A stretch of 64,000 nt of DNA, taken from assembly GCA_965207375.1 (NCBI GenBank), contig OZ242274.1:1344001-1408000 (forward strand), in the 5' to 3' direction. The stretch is from Nitrosopumilaceae archaeon. GTDB lineage: Archaea > Thermoproteota > Nitrososphaeria > Nitrososphaerales > Nitrosopumilaceae. The position numbers were made by a program, and so were the translations under genes. Below are positions 880 through 63,876 of this stretch, piece after piece. The number at the start of each line of letters is the position of its first letter. The stretch's first letter is position 1. The notes under the pieces are model-generated. The model ran no database searches. It was not told where the DNA came from and saw only the letters and a list, made by a program, of their open reading frames with translations.

Positions 880-921
880 GATCAAGGAATTTGTGCGATA
901 TTAGAAAGTGGACCTGACGGG
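880..921 (-). other. Displaced tRNA 3' end / attachment site (att) of the element at 922-11327
   Basis: Minus strand CCCGTCAGGTCCAC (908-921) equals 63426-63439, and ACAAATTCCTTGATC (880-894) equals 63454-63468. Bases 909-921 match 11323-11335 at 11/13 as a direct repeat. Confidence 0.7.
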
Positions 922-1186
922 TACTGTACCTGTAATGTCGCATTTTTACGTTCTGATATTTAAGACATGATGCTGTAATTTAGACCTTGGGATAAAATAC
1001 GTGTAAGACTGGGTCCTGCGTAACTAGTTTGCATGGCCTGTATCTAAAATTGAAATATACAGGAACAGCAAATCTAACCTATTACAAATACGTGAATCTT
1101 CATTTTGTTCAACTCGAAAGGATCGCAGGTATGCTATTTTTGTATCTGAAAAGATCAAGTGATATATCGTGTAATTATGTCAAGAT

Positions 1187-2572
1187 TTGAAAAGTCAAAA
1201 GCCACAAAAATGTATTCAATATATTCTTAAATCATTTTGTTGTATCATTGTTATGTCTACCATCAATAAAATTCCCGATCCGATTCATGGGCATCTTGGC
1301 GTTCCAGACTGGCTACGAGAAATAGAAAACACTCCACCTGTAAGACGAATGTTACGTATCAGACAGTTGGGTCTAAAATCGGTCATAGACTTTCCTGGGG
1401 CAATTCACACAAGATACGGTCATGCATTAGGTGTCATGCACCTGTCCGGATTTTTGGTAGACAAACTATATGAAAAAACCCAACAAGAAGGAAGAAATAC
1501 AATTGCCGAAAATTTGAAAAGCAACAAAAACAACTTGATGGCAGCAGGATTACTTCATGACATTGCACATGGGCCTTTTTCCCATGCAGTGGACTTTGTT
1601 TTAAGGCAGACCTCGCAGATAACCCACGAGCAGTTAGCAGAACAGGTGATATTCAATGATCTTGCCAAATCACTCACAAATCACGGAATCACTCCTGAAG
1701 CCGTAGTCAAAATAATCAACAACACTCATGATTTTAAATTCATTTCTGGAATAATTAACGGTCCAATCGATGTTGACAAGCTGGATTATCTTTTACGTGA
1801 CGCACATCATGTTGGCCTAAAATACGGTTTTGATCTAGAACACTTTGTAAATTCTTATACTGTTTTAGGTGATGATTCATCGTTATCTAGATGCATATTG
1901 GGTTTGGAAAACACACCTGTTGCCCAAGTTACTTCTGAGATCTTTGTATTGATCTGGAAAAGCATGTATGATTTGATCTATCACATACGTGATTCAAGGA
2001 TTGCAGAAAAGATGTTAGAAAAGGCCACATTGTTGGCAATTAGGGCAGATGACAAACTAGAACAATATTTTACAGACACATCTATGCTTTTGACTTTGGA
2101 TGACGATAATCTATTATCTTTGCTAAAAAATTCCAAAGATCCCTATACAAAGGAACTAGAAAAGAGAATACAAAATAGGCAGCTATTCAAATCTATACAC
2201 GACATTAATCTTTATGAAAATCCAGACATAAACCATCAATTTGTAACAAGGGTTACTACTGCAACATCTGGCGAGATAGATAAGATAAGCGATCGACTAA
2301 GCAGTAGACTTTCCGAAGAACTTGACCTAAAAGAATATGGTGCCATCTGCGATATTGTAAAATCAAGATCTCCTTCGAACATATTCATATGCGACAGAAA
2401 TGTTTCTGTTGATCCTAAAAACCTTAACGAGGAATCTGATATTTTAAAGGCAATCAAAGAGAAGATCACCTTGCGAATTTACATAAACCCCCACTCGATC
2501 AATGATCAAACCAAAGATCTTTTAATGAAGAAAATTTTTATTATCATGGATGAAGAGGTAAATGTACAATGA
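1187..2572 (+). CDS. HD-superfamily phosphohydrolase (SAMHD1/YwfO/COG1078-like); likely start at 1253
   Basis: Motifs DPIHG, RIRQLG, HTRYGHALG, LLHDIAHGPFSH and DVDKLDYLLRD. Confidence 0.9.
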   Translation: MKSQKPQKCIQYILKSFCCIIVMSTINKIPDPIHGHLGVPDWLREIENTPPVRRMLRIRQLGLKSVIDFPGAIHTRYGHALGVMHLSGFLVDKLYEKTQQEGRNTIAENLKSNKNNLMAAGLLHDIAHGPFSHAVDFVLRQTSQITHEQLAEQVIFNDLAKSLTNHGITPEAVVKIINNTHDFKFISGIINGPIDVDKLDYLLRDAHHVGLKYGFDLEHFVNSYTVLGDDSSLSRCILGLENTPVAQVTSEIFVLIWKSMYDLIYHIRDSRIAEKMLEKATLLAIRADDKLEQYFTDTSMLLTLDDDNLLSLLKNSKDPYTKELEKRIQNRQLFKSIHDINLYENPDINHQFVTRVTTATSGEIDKISDRLSSRLSEELDLKEYGAICDIVKSRSPSNIFICDRNVSVDPKNLNEESDILKAIKEKITLRIYINPHSINDQTKDLLMKKIFIIMDEEVNVQ

Positions 2573-3000
2573 TTACAACTGACGATTTACATTTTTTGCT
2601 GGAAATTATAAAGCACTCTAGAGTTGTTGAAGGTCGTCAAAAATTTCAACATATTGTCTGTGTTCTAAAGTATCGCGATCACATTCCGCTAGGTTTTGAT
2701 TTTACTTTGTATTATTTTGGACCATATTCAGAAACGCTTGCAGATAAAATCCAATCTCTGGTAGGCATCGGATACGTGCGCGAGGAAACCGTAAAAGTTA
2801 ACACTGATGTTTTTCGATGCGGATATTCTTTAACAGACTTGGGATTAAAGGAAATACAGAGTATTGAGGCAACACACCAAATATGTGGTATTGCAATTTC
2901 TGACCTGCAAAAACATATTGACCAAATCAACATGATGGATCCAAATGATCTGGTAAGATTATCAAAAACCTTAAAGATTGATCAAAAATTGGCAGCCTAG
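2569..3000 (+). CDS. YwgA/DUF4065-like partner of the HD protein
   Basis: Motifs GRQKFQ, F..YYFGPYSE.L and YSLT..G. Start overlaps the HD stop codon. Confidence 0.65.
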   Translation: MITTDDLHFLLEIIKHSRVVEGRQKFQHIVCVLKYRDHIPLGFDFTLYYFGPYSETLADKIQSLVGIGYVREETVKVNTDVFRCGYSLTDLGLKEIQSIEATHQICGIAISDLQKHIDQINMMDPNDLVRLSKTLKIDQKLAA

Positions 3001-3103
3001 TATTTGTATACAGAATTACACAAACCGTGTAATTCAAAACACAATACTTTCACATACTCTAAAGAATATCTAGAGTTGTTTTTGCAAATTCTGTTTGTTA
3101 CTG

Positions 3104-3657
3104 TCAGTAATACTGTTTTATGTATTGATATATCTTGGAGAACAACTCCTTATCCTTGTGAAGCTTGTACTGCAGTAGAACTCTTGTGATCTCTTGTTTT
3201 ATTTCTCTTTTGCCTACCGCTGTGTTTTGCCACCCATCAAAGCGCACATTTTTTACTATCTCATCTATTTTATGAACAATCGTTTTTATCATCTCTGGAG
3301 GTGTGGGTAGATTCTGCTGTTGGAATATTTTGGTCAGTGCTTGCCTGTCGTCTCTAGGATCCTTTGGTACTTGGTTTTTTGTTCTTCTACTACCACATCT
3401 TTTGCAATATCTAAAAGATCCTTTAGATACTGCACACTGTTTGTAATCCTATTTACATATCTCTCACGTGCAGCTTCGAGTCTTTGCCCGAGTTTTATGA
3501 AGGCAGGACGGTTTTGATATTTTTTTATTCGTCTTGTAATGATTATTTCTAACTGCTTTGGTTTCTTGGCAGTTTCGTTGTCATTAGGTTTGAAGATGTT
3601 TTCATCTAGAATCACCTTCTCCAAATTGCCATCATCTAATTTCCTTGATCGGGGCAC
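3104..3657 (-). pseudogene. Fragmented C-terminus of a type I restriction enzyme R subunit (HsdR)
   Basis: Two ORF fragments. VRFDGWQNT..G.REIKQ...LF.KIYQYIKQYY is a typical HsdR C-terminus. Confidence 0.65.
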
Positions 3658-3829
3658 ATATGATTACTCCAATTCTAGGCACTGTCCACGTAAATTCATC
3701 ATGCCGAACCTAGTCTCTTATCTTGAATAGAATACCAAAAAATACCATCTAAATGGTGATCATATTCTCTACAATTGGAACTATCGGACTTGCCAAACTC
3801 TTAATAGCAAATCTCAAAGCTATGGTGCA

Positions 3830-6800
3830 ATGGTACAAAAAACAAAACTGCTCATATTGCCACTTGTCCTGACGCTGATATCAGTACCGTTAGCATTTGG
3901 ACAAGATACATCAGATACCCGGCAAGGTCTTGATGATGTAGAGCCTTATGTGATATCACCATTAAAGCAATACAATGCAGGTGTACTAGCAGAACAAATT
4001 GTCTGTGAAAATAACAAAACATTGATGCTACGTCCCAACTCCGAACCTGCATGTGTCTATGAGACATCTGTAGAAAAGCTAGAGATGCGCAACTGGGTTG
4101 TACTGTACACACAGGACACTGTTTCATTATCTCCGGAACACGATACCTCATATACCGTATCAGAATCATCTGATGTTACTTTTAGTGAACCGTGTCTTTT
4201 CTGTTCCACCCTGGAGCTGTCCAGTTTTCCAAAGATTGGTGAGATAGCTACTGCTACACTTCATGTACCTAGTAGTACGCATATCAATATTCCAGAAGAT
4301 TGGGGTATGAATGTGTATTTTTATTCTACTGATCCTGATGCCGTAGAATTTCTAAATGTGGAACCGATAACAGTCATATCCAAAAACGATGGTTCTGTAC
4401 AGGATATCTATAGAATGCCATTTGTAACAGAAAGCAACAAACCTTCAACATTCTCAATCCAGTTCAAGATTATAAAAACTGGTCAGTTTTCCATAAATGG
4501 TGGAATTACAGACAATGAATCAAATTTTGTTACTCTTTTGGTAACAGAAGATGGCACTGAGGAATTTGTTCCACAGTATGCCCCTCCACCTGTTCTAACC
4601 GAACTGTACGCCAAAGAAATCAAGGAATTGCGTGCCATAATTGACAAGAGGGGAGGTGTTGGACCTGAGATAATAAACGTTGGAGACAGTGAAATTCTGA
4701 TGGATATAATACGATTTGAGGGACTGTTGACTGAACAGGAAGCCGAATATTATTTAACATTGGTGCTGACCAACGCCACACGTCACTATGGAGATGAGGG
4801 ACTTCCATGGAGACAGGTAGAACAAAGAAAAATATCTGACACGTCTCTTGCATTATTCATAAACGGATACAAGTACATTGAAAACCATCCAACACAAGTT
4901 CTTGGTACGTACTATTCTGATTGGGGTGCAGACAGATGGAATGATGGCTATGACAGTACACTTGAGGACATTAGAAGATATCTAGCACAGGGCAACTATA
5001 TGACGCAATCCCAGATAGACCAATACATCAAGGATTACATCGCAGACGATTTCCTTGACACCCAAAATTTTTCTTTTTCATTTTTGCCCAAGGCATATGC
5101 TGCAACTACCATACATCTAAAGGGATGGATATTAGCAGATCCCTCATTTAGTGACAAGACCGATGACCGTATCAGTGGCATTGAAGTATGTGGGCAAAAA
5201 AAGATCCCAAATGGTTACATGACGCTAAAAACCACACGTAATTTACCTGCGTGTGATATTACTGATGAAAATGGTAAATTTGTAATTGCCTCTGCAAGGC
5301 TTGATACCTCCTCAATTACATTATCGTATCTCATTCATACGGATACTGATAATCATGGAAAATCTAAAAGTTCACATGTACGTGTGGTTGATAGATCTAA
5401 TGTTGCATATGAGCATAACACTCAAGATTTTCCAAATATCAGTGCATCTCACAACTTATGGGCCTATAAACTTCCTAGTGATGATGATATCAGAGGTGCC
5501 GCATGGATTACTGATGCAATTGAAACTGGATGGCAATACTTTGATGAGGACGCACCTGACTTTAGAATAATTAAAACCATCACAGTAGAATGGGATCCCG
5601 ACATTAACACAGGTGCCAGTGCCTCAGGACATAAAATTATTTTGGGAGGTGGTGATACTGATACTGACGGCGATGAGCATTACAGATGGGTCATACTTCA
5701 CGAGTACGGACATGTTGTTTTATCTGCTGTATATGACAAAGTACTTGGTGCTTGTCCATCACTACATTCTATAGAGAACTTTACCAATCCTGTTTGTGCT
5801 TGGTATGAGGGCTGGGCTACCTTTGTAGCGCATGCAGTTGATGACGAACCTAATAAAATTTGGACCAAAACTAGTAATGTGGATTTAGAAAAACACGCAA
5901 TTTATTCAAATAATACCAGATCTATTGAATTTCAAAAAACTGATTCTTCATCAGTTGACATAGGACACAAAGTCGAAGGGCGCGTTGCAGCAGCCTTGTG
6001 GGACATTTATGATGATGCAGATGACCGAATATATGACCTAGTAAACGGTCAAAAGTTTGATGGCATATCCCATAGTGACGAGAAAATATTCAAAATATTT
6101 AGCCTTGACAATCCTGTATCTCTTGAAAAATGGAATAGTGAATGGAATGAAAGATATCCATCAAATAGTGTATCTAAAATCTTAAAGCTACATCACATGG
6201 GATTTAACATACCACCTGATGCAGATTCTCTACATGTTACAGTTAGAAGCGATACTACTACCATATTGTATCTTACTGCTAAAGATGTAGATGGAGACAA
6301 GCTACAATATCAAAAGATTACAGATCCAAATCACGGCACCTTGTCTCCAAAACTTGATGTGTTTCCAACAAATACTGTTGGCAAGGCAATAATACGATAC
6401 ACACCAAATGATGGATTTGTAGGTACTGATTCTTTCAAGTTTAAGGCACATGATGGTGACAAGTTTAGCACGGAGGCAACTGTTACCATCACTGTAAAAC
6501 CAAAACCACAACCAATTACCTTTACTGCATCACTTGATTCTGAGCTAGACAGCATTACTCTGAAATTTTCAAAAAAACTAACTCAGAATTTTAACACAAG
6601 TGACTTTACAACAAGTCATGGTACTATAGACCGCATTACAAACTATGACAATTCTAAAACAAGATACTTGCACGTATCAGACATGCCGTATAATACTGCG
6701 GTTACCGTAACTTATTCTGGTGCAGGGTTTACCACACCTGATAACTATGAACTGATATCCAAAAGCTATGCCAAGACCAACGCCGTACCAAAACCAGATA

Positions 6801-9616
6801 CTGCACCTTCAATATCAGACATTTCAGATGTAACACTCAATGCAAGCCAGACAAAGACTGTCAGTATAACTGCAACTGATGCCGAATCTGATCCCATCAC
6901 TCTGACCTTGCAAGCGGCACCATCGTTTGCCAAAATAACACATAACGGTAACGGCAAGGCTACGGTAACGCTGAATCCTGATTCCTCGAATATCGGCACC
7001 CATACAGTAACGGTAAAAGCTACAGCTAACGGCAAGTCTGATACAGAGTTCTTTACGGTTACAGTGACTATGAACACTGTATCTAGTGACACTCCGCCTG
7101 TAATCACGCCTATTTCAAACATCTCACTGACCGATTCTCAAACACTTTCATTTTCAGTTACAGCAACTGACAAGGAAGGTGATATCATAACACTATCACT
7201 TTCATCATCACCAGGATTTGTCACATTAACTGGCAACACGATATATGTCAATCCTACAAGCTCCGATGTCGGTACACATACGGTAACGATACAAGCTACA
7301 GCCAATGGCAAATCAGATACAGAATCATTTGAAATCACTGTAATCAAAACAGCAATTGATGCGGCACCCATAATATCTGAAATTGTAGATATATCAATGA
7401 CGGACTCTCAAACTAGAACTATAACAATTACTGCAACTGATGCAGACGGGGATACAATATCACTATCGCTACAGTCATCACCTAACTTTGTCAGCATAGC
7501 CGGAGACACCATTACAGTAAAGCCTAACATGTCAGATATCGGTACCCATACAGTAACGGTACAAGCTACAGCCAACGGAAAAACAGACACCGAATCCTTT
7601 ACGGTTACTGTATCTCAAACGATAATTGATAGCCCACCGGTTCTAACACCACAACCAGACATTACACTAAACCACACAGAAACAAAAACACTTGCAGTTA
7701 CAGCAACTGACCCTGATGGCGATGCCATAACTGTGAGCCTTGCAAGATACACACCTGACTTTGTAACGATACAATCTGTACCAGGAAACTCTACACTCCT
7801 GATAAAACCTGCACTGTCTGATGTAGGTACACATGATATAGGGATATATGCAGATGCAAACGGAAAACGAGCAGTTGATGTATTTAAAATTACAATACTA
7901 GAGGAAATCATAGATGCAGCACCTGTAATATCTGCAATACCTAATGTCTCTATGTTTGATTCACATACTAGAGCAGTTACAGTTACTGCAAGTGACAGGG
8001 AGGGTGATACCATAACACTGTCACTACAGTCAGCACCTGACTTTGTTACTTTATCAGGCAATATAATAGCAATAAAGCCTGCTAAAACCGATATCGGCAC
8101 ATATACAGTAACTGTACAAGCTGTAGCCAACGGTAAATCAGATACCCAATCTTTCAAGGTGATAGTGGCCAAGAGAGTCACCTTTGACACAGGACCAGTA
8201 ATGCAAACGATTCCTGACATTACAATGATTCATACTCAGACAGAAACGCTTAATGTTACTGTAACTGATAAAGAAAATGACATCATAACTATGAGCCTTG
8301 CAAGATACGCCCCTGACTTTGTTACTTTATTAGACAAGGGTGGCGGCAAGGGAACCATTACAATAAATCCAGATTCTTCTGATGTGGGAGTTCATTATGT
8401 TGGAGTATTTGCATATGCCAACGGCTTGTTTGCAGGTAATACGGTACGTGTGGCAGTTACCAATGTACCGGCAGATACTGTATCCCCTGTCTTTTCTAAT
8501 ATACCTGCAGACATTATACAATCAACTAGTTCCAATAAAACTTTAGTAACATTTGTGCCACCCACTGCAACTGATGACACAGACGGCACAATACAGGTCA
8601 TATCATCACACAAGTCAGGCATATTGTTTCCCATAGGAAACACAACTGTAACATTTACTGCAACAGATTCAGCAGGAAACAAATCAATACACAACATGAT
8701 AATCACAATTACCAAAACACCTCCTGCCACACCTCCTGCTATCTTGCTCAATGACACCTTTGATGGTACACTAAACAGCTGGACATACAAGGAAATACCT
8801 TATACACCGTGGATAAAAACAGATTGTGATACACAAAACAATAACGCATACACGTTATTGTACAGTACCGAACATAACGGCTCAGCACATCTAAACTATA
8901 CAGCACAGTGCTGGTTTGGAATGGCAGGTGCAAACAAGACCATCACCATACCAGAATCCCAAAAAGACTATTATCTACAAATCAGTCTAGATCACAGGAG
9001 CCTTGCAGACATGCGCCACTATGCAAATGTCGGAAATGTAAACAATCACTTTATGTCAATTACTGATTCTGATGGTCTAATTATACAATATGTGACGCTG
9101 TTTCAGGGAGAGTCACATGGTACCATACAGGATACTGCCTGGAGACAAAAATCAATTATGTTGTCTTCTACAGATATAGCAAGGTGTCCATGTGACGTAT
9201 TTGTCTATGTATCTGACTATTGGCGTATACCATGGAAGCAGCAAGGGTACATTGACAATGTAGAAATGAAATTTGTGCATGGTGTGACAGGTGCTGTACC
9301 AGAGATACAAAACAGTTTGACTATAGACGAATATGCACAAGCAGTATTTGCAAATGGCACTAAAATTGCAATTACAGGAAAATATGTAACAGATGATACG
9401 GTTCTAGTATCTTGGGAGGCATTTGCAGATGCGACCCAATACAAGGCAGTAATTGTACCTGCAGATACACAAGCAAAGACTGTACACAAGAAAATCACAA
9501 ATACTCTATACGAGTTTACTGAACTAGAACCTGACACTGCATATATTATCAAAGTCATGGTGGCTGATGACCCTTCAACTAAGAGTGTCATTACAGCAAC
9601 CACTTTGGGCAGATAG
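3830..9616 (+). CDS. Large secreted/surface protein with zinc metalloprotease motif, tandem Ig/cadherin-like repeats, HYR-like and FN3-like domains
   Basis: Signal peptide, LHEYGH zincin motif, ~6 repeats of P.I..I.D...TATD.EGD.ITLSL...P.FV...GTHTVTV.ATANGK.D, HYR-like FPIGNTTVTFTATDSAGN, and FN3-like LEPDTAY. Confidence 0.8.
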   Translation: MVQKTKLLILPLVLTLISVPLAFGQDTSDTRQGLDDVEPYVISPLKQYNAGVLAEQIVCENNKTLMLRPNSEPACVYETSVEKLEMRNWVVLYTQDTVSLSPEHDTSYTVSESSDVTFSEPCLFCSTLELSSFPKIGEIATATLHVPSSTHINIPEDWGMNVYFYSTDPDAVEFLNVEPITVISKNDGSVQDIYRMPFVTESNKPSTFSIQFKIIKTGQFSINGGITDNESNFVTLLVTEDGTEEFVPQYAPPPVLTELYAKEIKELRAIIDKRGGVGPEIINVGDSEILMDIIRFEGLLTEQEAEYYLTLVLTNATRHYGDEGLPWRQVEQRKISDTSLALFINGYKYIENHPTQVLGTYYSDWGADRWNDGYDSTLEDIRRYLAQGNYMTQSQIDQYIKDYIADDFLDTQNFSFSFLPKAYAATTIHLKGWILADPSFSDKTDDRISGIEVCGQKKIPNGYMTLKTTRNLPACDITDENGKFVIASARLDTSSITLSYLIHTDTDNHGKSKSSHVRVVDRSNVAYEHNTQDFPNISASHNLWAYKLPSDDDIRGAAWITDAIETGWQYFDEDAPDFRIIKTITVEWDPDINTGASASGHKIILGGGDTDTDGDEHYRWVILHEYGHVVLSAVYDKVLGACPSLHSIENFTNPVCAWYEGWATFVAHAVDDEPNKIWTKTSNVDLEKHAIYSNNTRSIEFQKTDSSSVDIGHKVEGRVAAALWDIYDDADDRIYDLVNGQKFDGISHSDEKIFKIFSLDNPVSLEKWNSEWNERYPSNSVSKILKLHHMGFNIPPDADSLHVTVRSDTTTILYLTAKDVDGDKLQYQKITDPNHGTLSPKLDVFPTNTVGKAIIRYTPNDGFVGTDSFKFKAHDGDKFSTEATVTITVKPKPQPITFTASLDSELDSITLKFSKKLTQNFNTSDFTTSHGTIDRITNYDNSKTRYLHVSDMPYNTAVTVTYSGAGFTTPDNYELISKSYAKTNAVPKPDTAPSISDISDVTLNASQTKTVSITATDAESDPITLTLQAAPSFAKITHNGNGKATVTLNPDSSNIGTHTVTVKATANGKSDTEFFTVTVTMNTVSSDTPPVITPISNISLTDSQTLSFSVTATDKEGDIITLSLSSSPGFVTLTGNTIYVNPTSSDVGTHTVTIQATANGKSDTESFEITVIKTAIDAAPIISEIVDISMTDSQTRTITITATDADGDTISLSLQSSPNFVSIAGDTITVKPNMSDIGTHTVTVQATANGKTDTESFTVTVSQTIIDSPPVLTPQPDITLNHTETKTLAVTATDPDGDAITVSLARYTPDFVTIQSVPGNSTLLIKPALSDVGTHDIGIYADANGKRAVDVFKITILEEIIDAAPVISAIPNVSMFDSHTRAVTVTASDREGDTITLSLQSAPDFVTLSGNIIAIKPAKTDIGTYTVTVQAVANGKSDTQSFKVIVAKRVTFDTGPVMQTIPDITMIHTQTETLNVTVTDKENDIITMSLARYAPDFVTLLDKGGGKGTITINPDSSDVGVHYVGVFAYANGLFAGNTVRVAVTNVPADTVSPVFSNIPADIIQSTSSNKTLVTFVPPTATDDTDGTIQVISSHKSGILFPIGNTTVTFTATDSAGNKSIHNMIITITKTPPATPPAILLNDTFDGTLNSWTYKEIPYTPWIKTDCDTQNNNAYTLLYSTEHNGSAHLNYTAQCWFGMAGANKTITIPESQKDYYLQISLDHRSLADMRHYANVGNVNNHFMSITDSDGLIIQYVTLFQGESHGTIQDTAWRQKSIMLSSTDIARCPCDVFVYVSDYWRIPWKQQGYIDNVEMKFVHGVTGAVPEIQNSLTIDEYAQAVFANGTKIAITGKYVTDDTVLVSWEAFADATQYKAVIVPADTQAKTVHKKITNTLYEFTELEPDTAYIIKVMVADDPSTKSVITATTLGR

Positions 9617-9919
9617 GCACATCCGTACCGCACTAGCTGAAATAGATTCGTACCTGATTCGGCATGCCACATCATGCGCAAAATCTGAAATTTATAACAA
9701 CGCGTAGTAATTTTAAAAAAGAATGTAACCCAGACTTGCGCAATCAGGCCATGGCAACGCCATAATAACATCTATAATTTCAATCTTTTTTGTGATTACT
9801 AGACCTATGCAACGTCCCCTGCACGTGCAACAGTTGCATGTAATGGGGCAGAATTTTTGGATTTTTACAATGTTTTACTGCGGCAATTTAGACATAATCC
9901 ATCTTCAGATTTGAAAACA

Positions 9920-11277
9920 CTATGTGTCTGTGATCAGACTTCTAGCACATGATACTAGTGCCTTGTCTGTATGTTCAGATATTGTTCTGCTACAGTATGG
10001 ACATGTGTGCGTATTGTCAGTCATGTGACAATACCAATACTGATTTGCATAAAAGACTAATTTTTTTTCATCAATCCTGCGTGCTAGGGATTCTACCATG
10101 CTACGCAGATTTTGTATCTGTCTGTCCTTGTCAGCCTCTAACTCTGCTATTTTTTTATTTTTGAGACGGTTTGATTCGGCAAGATGTACAGAATCATCTA
10201 TAGTGAGATTTGGAACAGCACAAATGTATTCTTCGGCAAGCTCCATGTTGTGCGTCTTAAAGTAATTTTTGTCAAGACTTACTAGTCCGGCATGGCCCAT
10301 CATGTATTCCTTTTTGATCAACGATGCAAGCGGTGAATCATTGGAGAGGGATTCTTTGCACGCTTTGTTCCAGAACCTTCTAAAACTGTTCATCATGGGA
10401 ACCTCGAATCTGCGCTGAATCTTGTGTTCTGGGTAGCGCAACCCCACATTGCCGATGGTTCTCTCTACTCTCTTTTTTATTCCCTTGATACTTGCCTTTG
10501 CAGGTTCTGTTCCGTCTTTTTTGAACACTGGATCTTCTGGAAGAGGCATTCTTCCCACCTCGCGGGTCCAAGCATCACGATAATTGCATACTGCCTCATA
10601 TGCTTCTGGGGTGATAAAAGCAGGATATCTTGCACTTGTCCCCTGATATATGGTCAACATGGCACATGTAACTATGGACTCTTTTGTACTATCAAAGCTT
10701 TGCGTGCTGCCGTTTTTGTATATTGGGCGTATGTCTCCCCAGTTTAGATCAAATCCACCTATGAGGATTCCAGAACTTGCCGCAATCAATATTATGGTCC
10801 GCTCTATGGGACCTCTTGCAAACTTTAACATCTTTTGAATTTCGTCTTTATTCCATCCGCGTGAATATAGGGTGTTGTCAATCTCTGGAAATGTAGCATA
10901 GATGCGCTTCCAAGATATTGTAATGTCATTCATATCCAATAATTTTTTTATCGGTTTGAAATAGTTGGAAAAAGAAGAAGGATTGTAATAGTTTGGATCA
11001 TCCTGTGGTAATTGGGTACACACTGTCGCATCTTTTTTGATATTCCTAAAAGCAGATCACGAATCCAGTCTGGATTCTCTTTGCCGTATTTTACAAACTG
11101 CTCTACTCGCTGCTCAAATGTACCATCAAGTATCTCATCTAGCACACCACACAATATGTATCGCAGACTGTGCGTGTATTTTTCACGGGTCTGCTCTGCC
11201 TTTATTCCCTGCAAGAACAACTCCATAGTCGATGCTGTATCTGTCCTTTCAAATCCTTCCTTTGTCAGTTTCATCAT
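9920..11277 (-). pseudogene. Tyrosine recombinase/integrase, frameshifted near 11030
   Basis: Two overlapping ORFs (10948-11277 and 9920-11023). Motifs NSFRRFWNK, EYMMGH and LDKNY are present. The first catalytic Arg appears replaced (SSGILIG). Confidence 0.8.
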
Positions 11278-11322
11278 CTCACATCTTAAATCTTAGAACG
11301 TATAAAAACGACCATATGGAAA

Positions 11323-11396
11323 TAGAACTGACGGGATTTGAACCCGTGACCCGTTATGTTTCAAGTAACGATTCAGCCAGCCTAAACTACAGGCCC
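11323..11396 (-). tRNA. Atypical tRNA copy 1: Ala-type acceptor (G3:U70) with GAA anticodon; acceptor 3' strand degraded by integration
   Basis: GGGCCTG TA GTTT AGGCTGGCT GAAT C GTTAC TTGAAAC ATAAC GGGTC ACGGG TTCAAAT CCCGT CAGTTCT A. 74-nt cloverleaf with mismatches at 4:69 and 31:39. Confidence 0.75.
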
Positions 11397-11430
11397 ACAA
11401 GTATTTTATAGTAATGATACAATATAAAAT

Positions 11431-11478
11431 CATGTTTCAAGTAACAAAGGCTACATACTGAACTAGCCTGTTTTTTTT
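11431..11478 (+). ncRNA. Putative antisense small RNA against the anticodon arm of tRNA copy 1
   Basis: 11432-11445 is identical to 11356-11369 (14 bp), followed by an AGGCTA-N10-TAGCCT hairpin and T8. TATA-like TTTTATA at 11404-11410. Confidence 0.6.
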
Positions 11479-12039
11479 ATTTCCGCCTATAATTCTAAGA
11501 TCATTTCATTTCAATACCTGTATAATCCCATAAATCCTCACCATTGATAATTAGGATAATTTCACCGATCTCACTTGGTTTTAATTTCTCAAAGTTTATT
11601 GTGTGATGTATAGGCAGGTCATAGATTAATTGTACATTCTGTATTACCCTTTTGTCATCTTCGCTCCTTGCCTCAATGATAACCTAAGGTCTACATGTCA
11701 TGAATGTCTAGCCTAAGTTCATCTAACGGTTTACCACCTATCTAGAGGGTCAAGGCCTTTGATTTGACATCTAGTTTTTCATCTGATTGTCCTATGTGAC
11801 CGGATTGATTTTAGCACTTTTCATTTGATCTTCTGTACTGCATGTACTGGTTTGTTTTGACTTTACAAACACTGTCTTATGTTGTTGGGTTTTCTCCTTG
11901 CATGTGCGGTTTGTATTAGGATTTTATTGCAAGTGTGCCTTGCATGTGTATCTCCTAATGCAGGCTGTGCTTGCAGTTCCTAGAGATATTGCCTTACGAT
12001 ACATTGACTTTGATTAGACTTTGTATATTAAAAAATTTG

Positions 12040-21299: not shown

Positions 21300-21659
21300 T
21301 CAGCATAGTAGATTAGGGTTTTCAATTATCTCTTTTAATAAATGACGATGACAGGGGGTGTCATCTGGTTCATAACAAAGTAATGTTACGTGTGAACGTT
21401 TAGTTTTTGAACTTAATTCCCTAATAATTTGTAAACTGTTGTCGTTTTCTTGTAGTTCTTGTTTGAAAGACATACTGAAATCTTCCCAGATTATGTCATG
21501 ATTTTTGTATTTTCGTAGTAATGATACACTTGGTGCAAGTTCTCTTGTCCATCTATCAAAATGAGTTTTTTTAACACCTCTGGGATAAAATCTAGTAATT
21601 AGAATCTTGGTCCCATCTCCATCTTCTTTAGGCTTGTAGATGCTCTTGGTCTTTATCAT
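21300..21659 (-). CDS. DUF488/YeaO-family protein
   Basis: MIKTKSIY..DG.KILITRFYPRGVKK, LAPS and VTLLCYE...CHR. The true start lies downstream of the repeat array. Confidence 0.85.
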   Translation of the reverse strand: MIKTKSIYKPKEDGDGTKILITRFYPRGVKKTHFDRWTRELAPSVSLLRKYKNHDIIWEDFSMSFKQELQENDNSLQIIRELSSKTKRSHVTLLCYEPDDTPCHRHLLKEIIENPNLLC

Positions 21660-21677
21660 TCCTTTTGTTTTGTTTTC

Positions 21678-22090
21678 ATTCCTAAAATTCCTAAAATTGC
21701 TGGCTCTCCTGCCCAAGATTCCTAAAATTCCTAAAATTGCCCACGTCTCAGGCATACCAATTCCTAAAATTCCTAAAATTGCTGGCTCTCCTGCCCAAGA
21801 TTCCTAAAATTCCTAAAATTGCCCACGTCTCAGGCATACCAAGATTCCTAAAATTCCTAAAATTGCTGGCTCTCCTGCCCAAGATTCCTAAAATTCCTAA
21901 AATTGCATACCAATTCCTAAAATTCCTAAAATTGCTGGCTCTCCTGCCCAAGATTCCTAAAATTCCTAAAATTGCTGGCTCTACCAATTCCTAAAATTCC
22001 TAAAATTGCCCACGTCTCAGGCATACCAATTCCTAAAATTCCTAAAATTGCTGGCTCTCCTGCCCAAGATTCCTAAAATTCCTAAAATTG
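21678..22090. repeat. Array of 11 copies of ATTCCTAAAATTCCTAAAATTG separated by two recurring GC-rich linkers (~40-42 bp period)
   Basis: Linkers CTGGCTCTCCTGCCCAAG and CCCACGTCTCAGGCATACCA recur, with truncated variants. Confidence 0.95.
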
Positions 22091-22651
22091 TCGTTGACAG
22101 CACCGAAATACGCGTTACATGCCTGTACTTTATGTCTGCATGTAAACTAAATACTAATTATTGGTGTAAATTGAGGCCGTTTATTAACATCTATCTGTTT
22201 AATCGCATTATCGGATTTATCTGATGTTTATTCTGATTCGTAATTTTCATGCCTGATGATGGCTAGAGCATATTAAAACTTAATATAACTTCAAATGCAT
22301 TACTATGTAGGTCGTGTATGACTCTTTGGGGCGATCTGTGATCGCGCCCAAGGCAGATGGATGCACGTCTATCTTTTAATCATCTTTTCTTGGATGTTTT
22401 TTCTACAGTCTATCTCAATCGTGCCATTGGGTTTTAGGCCTCGATTATTAGCCCATGCAACAACATCTGATAAAATATGTAAATGTCCCTTATCGGTATG
22501 TGCAATTCCGTTATCCTTTAGAAAATCTACACAATCAGAGTCACATTCAAAGACAATATCTGATATGGAGTTATTGTGCAAATAAATAAAAGATTCAATA
22601 CTTTCCCGTATTTCTTTGAATAATGTATAATTGTATATTTGAAAAATTTTT

Positions 22652-47405: not shown

Positions 47406-47482
47406 AGAGATGTTTTGTAATTAGAAAACCATGCCTAACAAGAGTAAAAATACGTGCCCAGATCTAATTACGGTTCCCCTCT
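47406..47482. mobile_element. MITE family A copy
   Basis: AGAGATGTTTTGTAATTAG ... CTAATTACGGTTCCCCTCT. Confidence 0.65.
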
Positions 47483-47501
47483 CATCTTTGCTTAAATGTA
47501 T

Positions 47502-47706
47502 ACTTTGTCGACTTTGCAAGGCTCAGGCGTGGATTTTGTCGACTTTGTCGACTTTGCAAGGCTCAGGCGTGGATTTTGTCGACTTTGTCGACTTTGCAAG
47601 GCTCAGGCGTGGATTTTGTCGACTTTGTCGACTTTGCAAGGCTCAGGCGTGGATTTTGTCGACTTTGTCGACTTTGCAAGGCTCAGGCGTGGATTTTGTC
47701 GACTTT
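47502..47706. repeat. Perfect 40-bp tandem repeat, ~5 copies
   Basis: Unit GCTCAGGCGTGGATTTTGTCGACTTTGTCGACTTTGCAAG. Confidence 0.95.
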
Positions 47707-48984
47707 TCATAATTTCCCTGTAAGATACTTTTTGAATAGAGGTATGGAAAATTGATATGTGCCGCGTTGGGATTTGTGTACTAGTTCTTTTTCTTCTAGT
47801 CGTTTGAGGTGATTGTAAACTGTTCCTTTCCCCATGCCTGTTGTTGTACAAATGGAAGAAAAATCTACAACATTATCCGGAAGTGATGCCATAGAATTCA
47901 ATACGCTATTCTGGGCGGTACTCAGAGCAGACATACGTTGTATAAAGAAACTATGTTCAAGTTTTTTCAATATGGGCGAGCGTACTGTCCTATAATAATC
48001 AAGATCAATGTGCTGTTTTCCACCAGCTCTTTCTATGATCTCGCTACAGAAAAATTGAATAAAATATGGATATCTATCCGTATCTAGTATGAGAGTGGAA
48101 GTTAATTCATCAGAAAAATTCCAATGGGATGACTTGAGTGGTTCTAAAATGGCTCTTTTAGCGTCATAATCTTCCAAGTTGGAGATGGGCATTGATTCAA
48201 ACATTCTTTCAGAATATGAGCGGGATATTTTGACATTGGAGATCATTGGAGGTAGACCACACAAAACAAGCGAAAACTTGTAGCCTTCTATCTGTAAAAG
48301 ATTTATTGCACCTATAAAATCTGCAAGGGTATACCAACCCTTCTTCTTGACATCGTTAATGACATGAAATTCATCTAGTAGGAACACTAGACCTTCAATG
48401 CCTTTTGGTTCCAATACATTCCATGCATTTTTCAAATAATCATATATTCTGTTATCTAAAGGTGCATATGCATCTAGATCATATGCGGGTTGATACGAAA
48501 TCAATCCCGGAATCTCTATCTTCATAGGTTTGAGATATCTTGCGGTGGCCATGATCCTTTTCTTTGCTTTATTGGTCTTAGAACATGCCTTTATTGCCCT
48601 ATCTAAGTCGTACTGGAGACATTTTACAAATATATTGGGATCTGCATGTTGTGTAGTGTATTGTGACCTTGAAATTGGGAGAAATTTTTTATCAATACAG
48701 ATTTCAGCAAATCTATTCAAAAGAACAGTCTTTCCTACACCTCGAAGACCATACAGCAATTTATTTTCAACCTTGCCTGCCTTGATGCGTTGCAACATGT
48801 GTGAGAATGTATCTAGCTCCGAGTTCCTGCCTGCAAGGTATGGTGGTTTCAAACCTGAACCTGGTGTGAATGGATTGTTGTAATCAGACACACATATGTC
48901 ACAATATGATTCGCTATAAACATAATCGAAAACATGTAGATAGAATTGTTTGTCTGATTTTTTGATATTTTTGCGGCTAGTCAC
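47707..48984 (-). CDS. AAA+ ATPase with C-terminal winged HTH
   Basis: NPFTPG, LAGR..E, GLRGVGKT, LLDEF, YPYFIQ and HLKRLEEKELV...RGTY.F. Confidence 0.85.
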   Translation of the reverse strand: MTSRKNIKKSDKQFYLHVFDYVYSESYCDICVSDYNNPFTPGSGLKPPYLAGRNSELDTFSHMLQRIKAGKVENKLLYGLRGVGKTVLLNRFAEICIDKKFLPISRSQYTTQHADPNIFVKCLQYDLDRAIKACSKTNKAKKRIMATARYLKPMKIEIPGLISYQPAYDLDAYAPLDNRIYDYLKNAWNVLEPKGIEGLVFLLDEFHVINDVKKKGWYTLADFIGAINLLQIEGYKFSLVLCGLPPMISNVKISRSYSERMFESMPISNLEDYDAKRAILEPLKSSHWNFSDELTSTLILDTDRYPYFIQFFCSEIIERAGGKQHIDLDYYRTVRSPILKKLEHSFFIQRMSALSTAQNSVLNSMASLPDNVVDFSSICTTTGMGKGTVYNHLKRLEEKELVHKSQRGTYQFSIPLFKKYLTGKL

Positions 48985-62519: not shown

Positions 62520-62732
62520 ATGAGCACAGTAGTACAAAAAAAGACATATTCCGTTTTAATAACTCCTGATCTTGAAGAGGGAGGATTTGTCGGTACCTGT
62601 GACGAGCTTCATGCAGTGTCAGAAGGAGATACATTTGGAGAAATAATGGAGAACATGAAAGAGGCAATGGAACTTGCTGCCGAAGAAGCAGGGTACACAA
62701 CGGATTTCAACATGCTTATCATAAAACAATAA
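62520..62732 (+). CDS. hicB: HicB-family antitoxin (paralog of 39541)
   Basis: GGFVG.CDEL.A.SEG.T.GEIMEN.KEA.EL. Confidence 0.85.
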   Translation: MSTVVQKKTYSVLITPDLEEGGFVGTCDELHAVSEGDTFGEIMENMKEAMELAAEEAGYTTDFNMLIIKQ

Positions 62733-62968
62733 TGACAAGATTTCCACGTGTATCTGGCAACTGGATGGTAAGATATCTATAGAGAAAGGGATATGTCATA
62801 ACCCAGAGAAAAGGAAGCCATATGACGTTACGTAATGAAGATCGAGTTACGGTCGTGCCAGCAGGAAACAAAAAATTGAGAATTAGAACTCAGTTTTCTA
62901 TACTGCTGTATGCAGGTATAGATAAGGAAGAATTTATCGATGATTACGAGCATGATCTGGTGAAATAA
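62732..62968 (+). pseudogene. hicA: HicA toxin with a premature TAG
   Basis: MTRFPRVSGNWMVRYL*RKGYVITQRKGSHMTL...VVP. Confidence 0.75.
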
Positions 62969-63037: not shown

Positions 63038-63146
63038 CAAAGAAACATGATCTTGTTTGAAGAATCAATAAAATCGAAATACACTAAAAGAAACTACATA
63101 TCACAAATAAACCGATTCAAAACATTCAAGGGTGTATCTAGTACAA
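63038..63146 (+). pseudogene. Integrase N-terminal remnant interrupted by a MITE A end
   Basis: QRNMILFEESIKSKYTKRNY resembles thaumarchaeal integrase N-termini (compare LFLQGIKAEQTREKY in the 11277 ORF). Confidence 0.45.
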
Positions 63147-63282
63147 AGAGATGTTTCGTAATTAGAAAATCACACCTAACAAGAGCAAAAATTTCAGATA
63201 TTACATTTAGACGATAGGATTCCATACCTTGAACATCATTATAAAAACACATTTAGAAAGATTTGAATCATAAACAGAAATT

Positions 63283-63331
63283 AAAAAAAACAGGCTAGTT
63301 CAGTAGGTAGCCTTTGTTGCCTGAAAGTCAA
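63283..63331 (-). ncRNA. Putative antisense small RNA against the anticodon arm of tRNA copy 2
   Basis: 63317-63331 matches 63393-63407 at 14/15. AGGCTA-N10-TAGCCT hairpin and T8 on the minus strand; TATA-like box at 63351-63357. Confidence 0.6.
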
Positions 63332-63364
63332 ATTTATTACGTATAATAAGTATAAAATCCTTGT

Positions 63365-63438
63365 GGGCCTGTGGTTCAGCTTGGTAGAACGATTGCCTGA
63401 AAGCCAATAGGTCACGGGTTCAAATCCCGTCAGGTCCA
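63365..63438 (+). tRNA. Atypical tRNA copy 2: Ala-type acceptor (G3:U70, A73) with GAA anticodon
   Basis: GGGCCTG TG GTTC AGCTTGGTA GAAC G ATTGC CTGAAAG CCAAT AGGTC ACGGG TTCAAAT CCCGT CAGGTCC A. The only mismatch is C31:C39. Confidence 0.85.
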
Positions 63439-63540
63439 CATTTTACTTTCCGTACAAATTCCTTGATCGACTTGAGATAGAGTTTGTACCTGATTTTGTA
63501 CTGATTTGCCCCCTTTTATACAAAATAATTCTATGTCACC

Positions 63541-63876
63541 ATGATATTAATCGCAATTGTAGCCGTTGTCATAATCTTTCTTGCCATTGGTACTGCCATG
63601 AACTATTACTCACACAGAGATGATGTTTCACAAAAACAAGAGGTCTCAAATATTATCCAAAACGACCGAATAAAGGAACAACTTACTGTATCTAGAAACG
63701 ACTCACATCTGTTTGTTGCAAACCAGTGGGGTGGAGAGTCGTCCACACTACAGGCAATAGGTATCACATGTGATGATGGGCGTGTCTTTACAACACAGCT
63801 AAAGATAAACATAACATCACTACACATCGCCAACCAGTCAAAGGTATTTGAGGAACTGAACGCCAAATGTGGCTAG
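63541..63876 (+). CDS. Membrane-anchored hypothetical protein (pilin-associated-like)
   Basis: N-terminal hydrophobic helix; element-type promoter 27 nt upstream. Confidence 0.6.
   Translation: MILIAIVAVVIIFLAIGTAMNYYSHRDDVSQKQEVSNIIQNDRIKEQLTVSRNDSHLFVANQWGGESSTLQAIGITCDDGRVFTTQLKINITSLHIANQSKVFEELNAKCG

Follow-up and report, generated by a model that had tools for sequence, protein, structure and literature searches.

Type VIII toxin-antitoxin systems are RNA-RNA pairs, as exemplified by SdsR/RyeA and CreTA; the CreT toxins act through tRNAs, and the CreTA antitoxin carries a CRISPR-repeat-like element and works via Cascade. Antisense RNAs also control plasmids and phages, as in RNAI/RNAII, CopA/CopT and hok/sok. 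Here we describe two cassettes in a 64-kb window (the whole stretch of 64,000 nucleotides that was analysed, G000:C1:1344001-1408000 in the 4.3-Mb genome of a Nitrosopumilaceae archaeon), in each of which a supernumerary tRNA gene stands beside a predicted gene for a small RNA antisense to the anticodon arm of that same tRNA. The small RNA changes together with the anticodon arm from one cassette to the next, the tRNAs of the cassettes combine alanine identity elements with a Phe or Leu anticodon, and the two RNAs may be a toxin and its antidote. In their working, the cassettes come closest to the RNA-RNA toxin-antitoxin pairs and to plasmid antisense control, though they share only complementarity of the features that define these systems.

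The likeness to type VIII and type I toxin-antitoxin systems lies in a small antisense RNA that is encoded beside its target and would neutralise a harmful RNA by pairing. In contrast to type VIII, the presumed toxin here would be a mistranslating tRNA itself. In contrast to type I, there is no toxin open reading frame (ORF), and it is the tRNA to which the small RNA is complementary; the ORFs that cross the cassette are limited to frames of 35-52 aa that overlap the tRNA on the opposite strand, and none of them is conserved as a gene. The predicted antisense RNA also differs from both types in being trans-acting and in having a separate, non-overlapping gene that occurs in three layouts. A further likeness is that its specificity groups resemble incompatibility groups. 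With RNAI/RNAII, CopA/CopT and hok/sok the cassettes share a short and probably unstable RNA whose 5' stem-loop is complementary to the target and which ends in a 3' terminator hairpin, and loop-loop kissing with an exposed 7-nt loop is likely here too. The target, however, is the anticodon arm of a mature tRNA and not an mRNA or a primer.

The two cassettes of the window form a 158-nt inverted repeat (11325-11482 versus 63279-63436, 79% complementary). The original prediction, made from the sequence of the window, had placed two cassettes at these positions, and the inverted repeat, its alignment and the tRNA calls of ARAGORN and Rfam bore it out (Table 1). Both copies have the hairpin (6 bp, 10-nt loop), the run of eight A and the copy of the anticodon arm, the last at an exact offset of 76 nt from the arm (63317 versus 63393; 11432 versus 11356) and matching it at 14/14 positions in copy 1 and 14/15 in copy 2, all as had been predicted. 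The second block that it had described matches tRNA positions 8-15 at 7 of 8. One wording needs correction: the complementarity holds on the antisense strand, but the upstream unit, as seen on the tRNA strand, directly repeats part of the tRNA, from position ~8 to ~42. Read on the opposite strand, the unit gives the anticodon-arm complement first and the hairpin and U8 last, and the two readings are equivalent. The hairpin and T run are kept at 33 of 34 positions between the two copies, compared with 79% for the whole cassette. A search of the predicted small RNA unit against Rfam matched no family. An integrating element exchanged the final bases of tRNA copy 1, whose acceptor stem has one mismatch and two G.U pairs as a result; a near-identical twin of this copy, 2.6 kb to the left of the window, retains the intact 3' end. 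A conserved non-coding tail of ~110 nt is found downstream of most cassettes (for example at 63439-63560, and at 730-896 on the minus strand), contains a perfect 14-nt palindrome and persists beside displaced tRNA 3' ends.

Table 1. Positions in the window of the two cassettes, their predicted parts and the element integrated into copy 1.
Feature	Position	Strand	Basis and remarks
Predicted antisense small RNA gene, copy 2 (~50 nt)	63283..63334	-	Sequence, fold with 3' hairpin, recurring design; ends predicted
Copy 2 small RNA, anti-anticodon-arm segment	63317-63331	-	
Copy 2 small RNA, hairpin	63292-63313	-	
Copy 2 small RNA, T8 run	63283-63290	-	
TATA-like box, tRNA gene, copy 2 (putative)	63333..63339	+	-32 to -26; position as in canonical tRNA genes
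TATA-like box, antisense RNA, copy 2 (putative promoter)	63351..63358	-	7-14 nt upstream of tRNA 5' end, opposite strand
Supernumerary tRNA copy 2, anticodon GAA	63365..63438	+	ARAGORN; Rfam RF00005, 63.1 bits; acceptor analysis; comparison with host tRNA-Ala
Anticodon arm of tRNA copy 2, predicted antisense target	63393-63407	+	
Predicted antisense small RNA gene, copy 1	11429..11478	+	Sequence, alignment, fold
Copy 1 small RNA, anti-anticodon-arm segment	11432-11445	+	
Copy 1 small RNA, hairpin	11448-11469	+	
Copy 1 small RNA, T8 run	11471-11478	+	
Supernumerary tRNA(GAA) copy 1	11323..11396	-	ARAGORN; Rfam, 39.5 bits; end swapped by integrating element
Displaced original 3' end of tRNA copy 1 (attR-like)	897..921	-	8-bp core 914-921, repeated at 11328-11335
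Integrated element (~10.4 kb) inside tRNA copy 1	922..11327	-	Core repeats, integrase-like gene, Pfam hits of cargo

The count of two cassettes is correct for the window, but blastn and inspection bring the total for the genome to seven. Five of these carry the anticodon GAA and two carry AAG together with a different hairpin, one of the latter being degenerate. The set presents five different anticodon-arm sequences, and each is tracked by its own upstream unit (14/14, 16/16, 15/16, 14/15 and 19/20 positions). All 60 ARAGORN tRNAs of the genome were scanned with 250-nt flanks in both orientations. Anticodon-region matches of at least 11 nt were returned by seven tRNAs of the cassette type and by one tRNA-Thr beside pseudo-tRNA fragments, and the remaining 52 tRNAs gave matches of 5-10 nt only; no canonical tRNA of this genome has such a partner. 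The contrast between the seven and the 52 indicates that the match in the window exceeds chance. An eighth related locus holds a 72-nt tRNA(GAA) at C1:823190, where tRNA and partner are spaced by 215 nt because a copy of a repeat resembling a miniature inverted-repeat transposable element (MITE) lies between them. This MITE-like repeat of ~95 nt with terminal inverted repeats is found in more than 40 places in G000:C1, including ~726-820 of the window and C1:823309-823399. On another contig, a cluster of tRNA-Thr and tRNA-Gln at G000:C3:493247-494328 has inverted truncated pseudo-tRNA copies in between; the 13-22-nt inverted match upstream of one tRNA-Thr there resembles fragment debris and not the partner design.

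Covariation was followed through 23 loci, of which eight belong to this genome and 15 to other genomes; G510, which would be the 24th, is outside this set. At 20 of the 23, a flanking segment matches the anticodon arm of its own tRNA, over 11-18 nt exactly or over 15 nt with one G.U, and the complementarity of antitoxin RNA to toxin RNA that marks type VIII pairs is present at the same 20. In a 16-by-16 cross-table, non-cognate matches are typically of 6-8 nt and at most of 11 nt. What the original prediction had drawn from two copies is therefore repeated in five specificity groups here and in 13 more cognate pairs of other genomes, and homologues that fail to track the arm, which it had named as a sign against itself, are the minority. 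The predicted binding energy (ddG) is -12.6 to -21.8 kcal/mol for cognate and 0 to -8.7 kcal/mol for non-cognate pairs, a specificity that results from sequence identity and is not independent evidence. Internal imperfections of the duplexes comprise seven G.U, two A.C and one other; the excess of G.U leans towards a constraint on RNA pairing, though the counts are small and the comparison was made after the fact, and it is suggestive only.

The partner is divergent and upstream of the tRNA at 14 loci, tandem and downstream (an inverted copy, on the tRNA strand) at four, and convergent and downstream at two. In all three layouts the order on the antisense strand is constant: an A/T box, the antisense segment, the hairpin and the T run. 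In 14 of the 15 partner-bearing loci scanned, a box of A/T only has its start 27-34 nt before the antisense segment, the hairpin has at least five stem sequences across the lineages with its place unchanged, and the T run is T5-T9 in the 18 partner-bearing loci tabulated, with G503 read by eye. The tandem-downstream RNAs have an extra block of 11-12 nt antisense to tRNA positions 5-16, a counterpart of the D-arm block proposed for the window copies. Canonical tRNA genes here have a TATA-like box at about -33 to -25, which the cassettes have too; a second box at -15 to -8, conserved in all seven cassettes, fits an antisense promoter. Since one RNA design recurs in three layouts, we infer a transcribed antisense RNA of ~45 nt, and the same recurrence counts against an integration scar. 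Moreover, an oligo-T after a hairpin is meaningful only as a transcript end, and its constant place on the antisense strand weighed most with us in accepting a small antisense RNA gene and in rejecting scars, same-strand mimics and protein sites. The constant design thus supports, as a predicted gene, the separate small antisense RNA gene proposed originally. To judge from sequence, it is very probably a real antisense RNA gene directed at the tRNA.

Two alternatives bear on the same evidence. The partner may be a neutral relic, namely a dead partial copy of the tRNA 5' half that came from duplication or integrative elements and was kept alike by gene conversion. It is true that the unit is a partial copy of positions ~8-42 on the tRNA strand, that tRNA genes here serve as integration targets and that displaced fragments exist. 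However, the hairpin and T run are better conserved than the cassette, the match is limited to the anticodon arm with sharp ends and without flanking homology to drive conversion, a TATA-like box lies at the right distance, and one RNA design is seen over three layouts with hairpin stems that vary in sequence and not in place, all of which makes a relic very improbable. Integrative elements reportedly leave displaced tRNA-gene fragments behind, as is ascribed to Williams in 2002. Thaumarchaeal integrative elements are treated in the available part of PMC6563490. The cassettes resemble such fragments in having a partial tRNA copy beside a tRNA gene in an island-rich genome, but the partner spans the internal positions 5-42 only, lies 35 nt from the tRNA or downstream of it in either orientation, has its own TATA box, hairpin and T run, and tracks the anticodon arm. 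The fragment at 897-921 has the marks of an integration scar, being the replaced end of the tRNA, placed at the far end of an island with an integrase and provided with the crossover core, and the partner unit lacks them. The other alternative is that the two identical sites of 14-16 bp are bound by one recombinase or repressor, which would loop the promoter of the tRNA. The constant 76-bp spacing in the divergent layout and the action of integrases on these tRNAs would suit this idea, yet the crossover core was observed in the T-stem/acceptor region and not in the anticodon arm, the partner is downstream inverted at four loci and downstream direct at two, and on the antisense strand the oligo-T comes after the hairpin in every case, which has a meaning for an RNA and none for a protein site. 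We find this explanation barely credible.

Other RNA types were considered as well. An archaeal C/D box guide RNA has C (RUGAUGA) and D (CUGA) boxes that flank a guide of 10-12 nt; this candidate was rejected, as the predicted RNAs have no C box and CUGA appears in some of them only, as a D-arm complement. A T-box-like leader, split or permuted tRNA halves and a target-site duplication were dropped, because the upstream unit has no acceptor strand and the copies share one architecture.

With regard to the tRNAs, a canonical GC-rich tRNA-Phe with encoded CCA is located at C1:1921024, elsewhere in the genome, which makes the cassette tRNAs additional ones. Five of five other carriers tested likewise have a canonical tRNA-Phe, with 91% identity to that of this genome. 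The acceptor stem and T arm of the cassette tRNAs match the host tRNA-Ala(TGC) gene, and all eight loci of this genome have the alanine identity elements G3.U70 and A73. Within the genome, G3.U70 occurs only in three true tRNA-Ala genes and these eight loci, in a count that allows for one-base offsets of ARAGORN and in which the worn seventh cassette, uncalled by ARAGORN, was read by inspection. Instead of the alanine anticodon NGC, they carry GAA (Phe) or AAG (Leu CUU) and are consequently not normal tRNA-Ala isoacceptors. The Rfam alignment gives a standard 7-bp acceptor stem and 5-bp T stem, and most anticodon stems have only four pairs, 31.39 being mismatched. The anticodon GAA, U33 and A37 are constant while neighbouring bases change, as expected for a decoder.

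According to the available parts of two papers, G3.U70 is sufficient for alanyl-tRNA synthetase (AlaRS) and the anticodon plays no part (PMC11415595; PMC10543346); in yeast, as the same portion of the latter has it, growth is slowed when a single-copy plasmid supplies tRNA-Ala with a GAA anticodon, and a multicopy plasmid with this tRNA yielded no transformants (PMC10543346). Because AlaRS ignores the anticodon and G3.U70 and A73 are present, the cassette tRNAs should receive alanine, and they look like Phe-to-Ala (or Leu-to-Ala) mistranslators. The harmful tRNA of the original prediction is thereby given a possible reason, which strengthens that claim, although the toxicity is predicted only. 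Allo-tRNAs and anticodon variants of tRNA-Ala are similar in joining anticodon-independent identity elements, either G3.U70 or a long variable arm, to a non-cognate anticodon, as far as the available parts of the sources go (PMC5389517; PMC10543346; PMC12084884), and allo-tRNA genes are often near toxin-antitoxin systems and transposons, from what is available of Mukai et al. (Mukai et al., 2017, PMC5389517). The cassette tRNAs differ from allo-tRNAs in their ordinary 7/5 cloverleaf, which is not 8/4 or 9/3, and in their archaeal host. The word 'antisense' occurs 0 times in the main text of Mukai et al. (2017, PMC5389517), and the part of that paper at hand has no cognate antisense RNA gene. 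In open full texts, of which parts were available and which leave subscription journals outside the coverage, we found no description of a tRNA gene that has a cognate antisense RNA gene as its partner. Even without toxicity, a dedicated antisense RNA gene whose sequence changes along with its own tRNA's anticodon arm was not found in this literature.

Relatives were sought in other genomes. By blastn, 150 genomes of the family gave no cassette, and one of them matched the tRNA part only. A hairpin-to-T-arm pattern had exact matches confined to the genome of the window among 400 genomes of the class and none in viral contigs, a promoter-plus-tRNA-start pattern gave two matches in metagenome contigs, both non-tRNA and due to chance, and blastn gave only generic tRNA similarity in a phage collection and no match in a plasmid collection. 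A pattern of an Ala-type acceptor and a GAA loop over 401 genomes of the class (400 sampled and that of the window) matched in 35 genomes, and by reading the matched strings the matches are tRNA-shaped in ten, including the window's; all ten belong to its family, and the remaining matches are chance, as with reversed-pattern controls. For one genus, a relaxed pattern with positions 3 and 70 free was run over 151 genomes, 10 of which have tRNA-shaped places, 12 in all; three loci are new compared with the first pattern. G3.U70 is found in 11 of the 12 places; the exception is G503 with A3-U70. Within the family, at least 11 genomes besides that of the window have related pairs. The Rfam tRNA score is above the threshold, at more than 29 bits, in 18 of 20 related loci and reaches 46-63 bits in 16 of them, and Phe72 and G450 are tRNAs by the call of ARAGORN or by eye only. 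One of the other genomes, G313, has an Ala-type tRNA with the anticodon AAG and its own 14-nt cognate upstream partner (L316 13748-13819), as well as an 89-nt tRNA(GAA) with a long extra arm (L315 9355-9443) at 0.9 kb from an Ala-type tRNA(GAA), an example of how these odd tRNAs cluster.

The extra tRNA may be a benign accessory one that is charged with Phe or is harmless and decodes AT-rich genes of islands or viruses, its level or activity being tuned by the antisense RNA. The anticodons GAA and AAG, as well as TAT on a serine-type body, suit AT-rich codon use, the TATA position is normal, the cloverleaf is good with the Rfam scores just given, and G503 lacks G3.U70 yet has a partner. A carrier of Phe, however, should lose G3.U70, which is kept in all eight loci here and in the 11 places of the relaxed pattern; the canonical tRNAs of the genome have no such partner; and the fast, matched divergence of arm and partner resembles a race of specificity and not a control of dosage. 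We regard a benign tRNA as unlikely. A role outside translation is less likely still, the tRNA acting then as a tRNA-shaped sponge or decoy for a small RNA with other targets, or either RNA as a decoy for an anticodon nuclease or another tRNA-binding protein. The weak anticodon stems would agree with it, and so would a serine-type tRNA(GAA) that shares a 13-mer and a 6-mer with a transposase ORF and is antisense to it (see below). On the other hand, the words of 11-16 nt from the anticodon arms of the five groups are absent elsewhere in the 4.3-Mb genome, save for three extra matches of one 11-mer, and GAA, U33 and A37 stay constant amid varying neighbours, as for a decoder.

The toxin-antidote reading, which we prefer, may be put as follows. 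The tRNA, a derivative of tRNA-Ala in this reading, would be transcribed from its own promoter, matured and charged with alanine by AlaRS, and the charged tRNA would put alanine at Phe or Leu codons as a potentially harmful mistranslator. The small RNA, predicted to be of ~45-50 nt with its own TATA box and a 3' terminator of hairpin and oligo-U, would be complementary by its 5' 14-18 nt to the anticodon arm and often also to part of the D-arm 5' strand; its predicted fold is a 5' stem-loop that mirrors the anticodon arm, then the 3' terminator hairpin. It may kiss the anticodon loop and then open the weak stem, and this pairing would block decoding or expose the tRNA to decay. If the locus were lost, or transcription were shut off by a virus, the labile small RNA would no longer be made and the stable tRNA would be freed, with damage to the proteome. 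Divergent arms with matching antisense RNAs would make specificity groups that do not cross-react. Whether the pairs are in full such an RNA-RNA toxin-antitoxin or abortive-infection type module appears to us evenly balanced on the sequence evidence. That they form a new class of RNA-only module, with a Phe/Leu-to-Ala tRNA as toxin and an anticodon-arm-masking antisense RNA as antidote, co-diversifying in islands of ammonia-oxidising archaea, is a possibility that we put forward somewhat more tentatively.

Several points weigh against the toxin-antidote reading. Three loci depart from covariation: in the degenerate cassette K6 the unit is present with a decayed match, in G450 the unit is present with a match of only 9 nt, and G265a has no partner within 600 nt, the end of a transposase-like ORF lying directly upstream. 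G503, with A3-U70, still has a 15-nt cognate partner, so alanine identity may not be required. G3.U70 could persist by descent alone, phenylalanyl-tRNA synthetase might also charge a GAA tRNA with A73, and the weak anticodon stems may also be a sign of poor decoding. That GAA dominates outside this genome is due to the construction of the patterns, which demanded a GAA loop. Furthermore, a conserved protein gene or a clear mobile-element boundary that accompanies the pairs was not found.

If the toxin-antidote reading is true, a tRNA can be used as a genetic weapon, in a deliberate mistranslation leashed by RNA pairing with the mature tRNA, and the anticodon arm can evolve as a recognition tag beyond its decoding role. 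A toxin mechanism (proteome-wide missense) and a target class (tRNA) would then be added to the biology of toxin-antitoxin systems and antisense RNAs, in Nitrosopumilus-type archaea that are globally important for nitrification and poorly explored for RNA regulation. The pairs might also serve synthetic biology as ready-made orthogonal switches of tRNA and anti-tRNA.

The original prediction had further assigned the cassettes to a mobile element. The element in copy 1 carries, next to the tRNA, an integrase-like gene that is split in two overlapping ORFs (minus strand, 9920-11277); its cargo also comprises an HD-domain gene (1187-2572) and a gene for a 1928-aa Ig/HYR-domain surface protein (3830-9616). 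The integrase-like ORF matched nothing in Pfam, PHROG or PDB sequences, and its identity is taken from the names of its relatives of 400-470 aa, which are called 'integrase' by their sources; elsewhere in this genome, members of the family adjoin tRNA-Met and tRNA-Lys. The setting of the other loci is either a junction of housekeeping genes with variable DNA or a neighbourhood of transposases, a TnpB-like gene, a BrxC/D-like ATPase and many orphan ORFs. An integrase homologue was not found in their retrieved flanks, so that 'part of a mobile element' cannot be generalised. The assignment therefore stands as far as the regions are variable and transposase-rich, but only copy 1 touches a defined element, and it does so as the integration target. 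It is fair to call the pairs island-associated.

Another odd tRNA at G000:C1:1677112-1677326 combines the anticodon GAA with a serine-type body, as shown by G73, a long variable arm and a D arm that resembles that of the host tRNA-Ser. Upstream of it are an A-run and a 9-bp hairpin, whose loop holds copies of a 13-mer of the variable arm and a 10-mer of the anticodon arm in swapped order. A serine-type body with GAA and a similar partner is a hint that the idea was invented more than once, independently. At G000:C1:349757-349842 another serine-type body, likewise with G73 and a long variable arm, has the anticodon TAT (Ile AUA), and no partner was found within 250 nt of it. An ISH3-like transposase ORF (L270 3566-4723; G000:C1:1678565-1679722) and three other copies contain the reverse complement of the 13-mer and of an adjacent 6-mer. 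The serine-type tRNA(GAA) is thus antisense to ~20 nt of the transposase mRNA, interrupted by a 3-nt bulge; this may reflect a regulatory link or be due to chance.

Just upstream of cassette copy 2, a small HicB-like ORF (62520-62732; PHROG 497, E = 2.8e-07) is followed by a 48-aa ORF (62822-62968), and the two may be a HicAB-type pair or its remnant. A 56-aa ORF at 63047-63217 resembles the remnant of an integrase N-terminus and is repeated elsewhere in the window. The window also has two tandem arrays, one of six 40-nt units at 47457-47746 and another of ~12 units of ~40 nt, based on a short repeated word, at 21636-22095.

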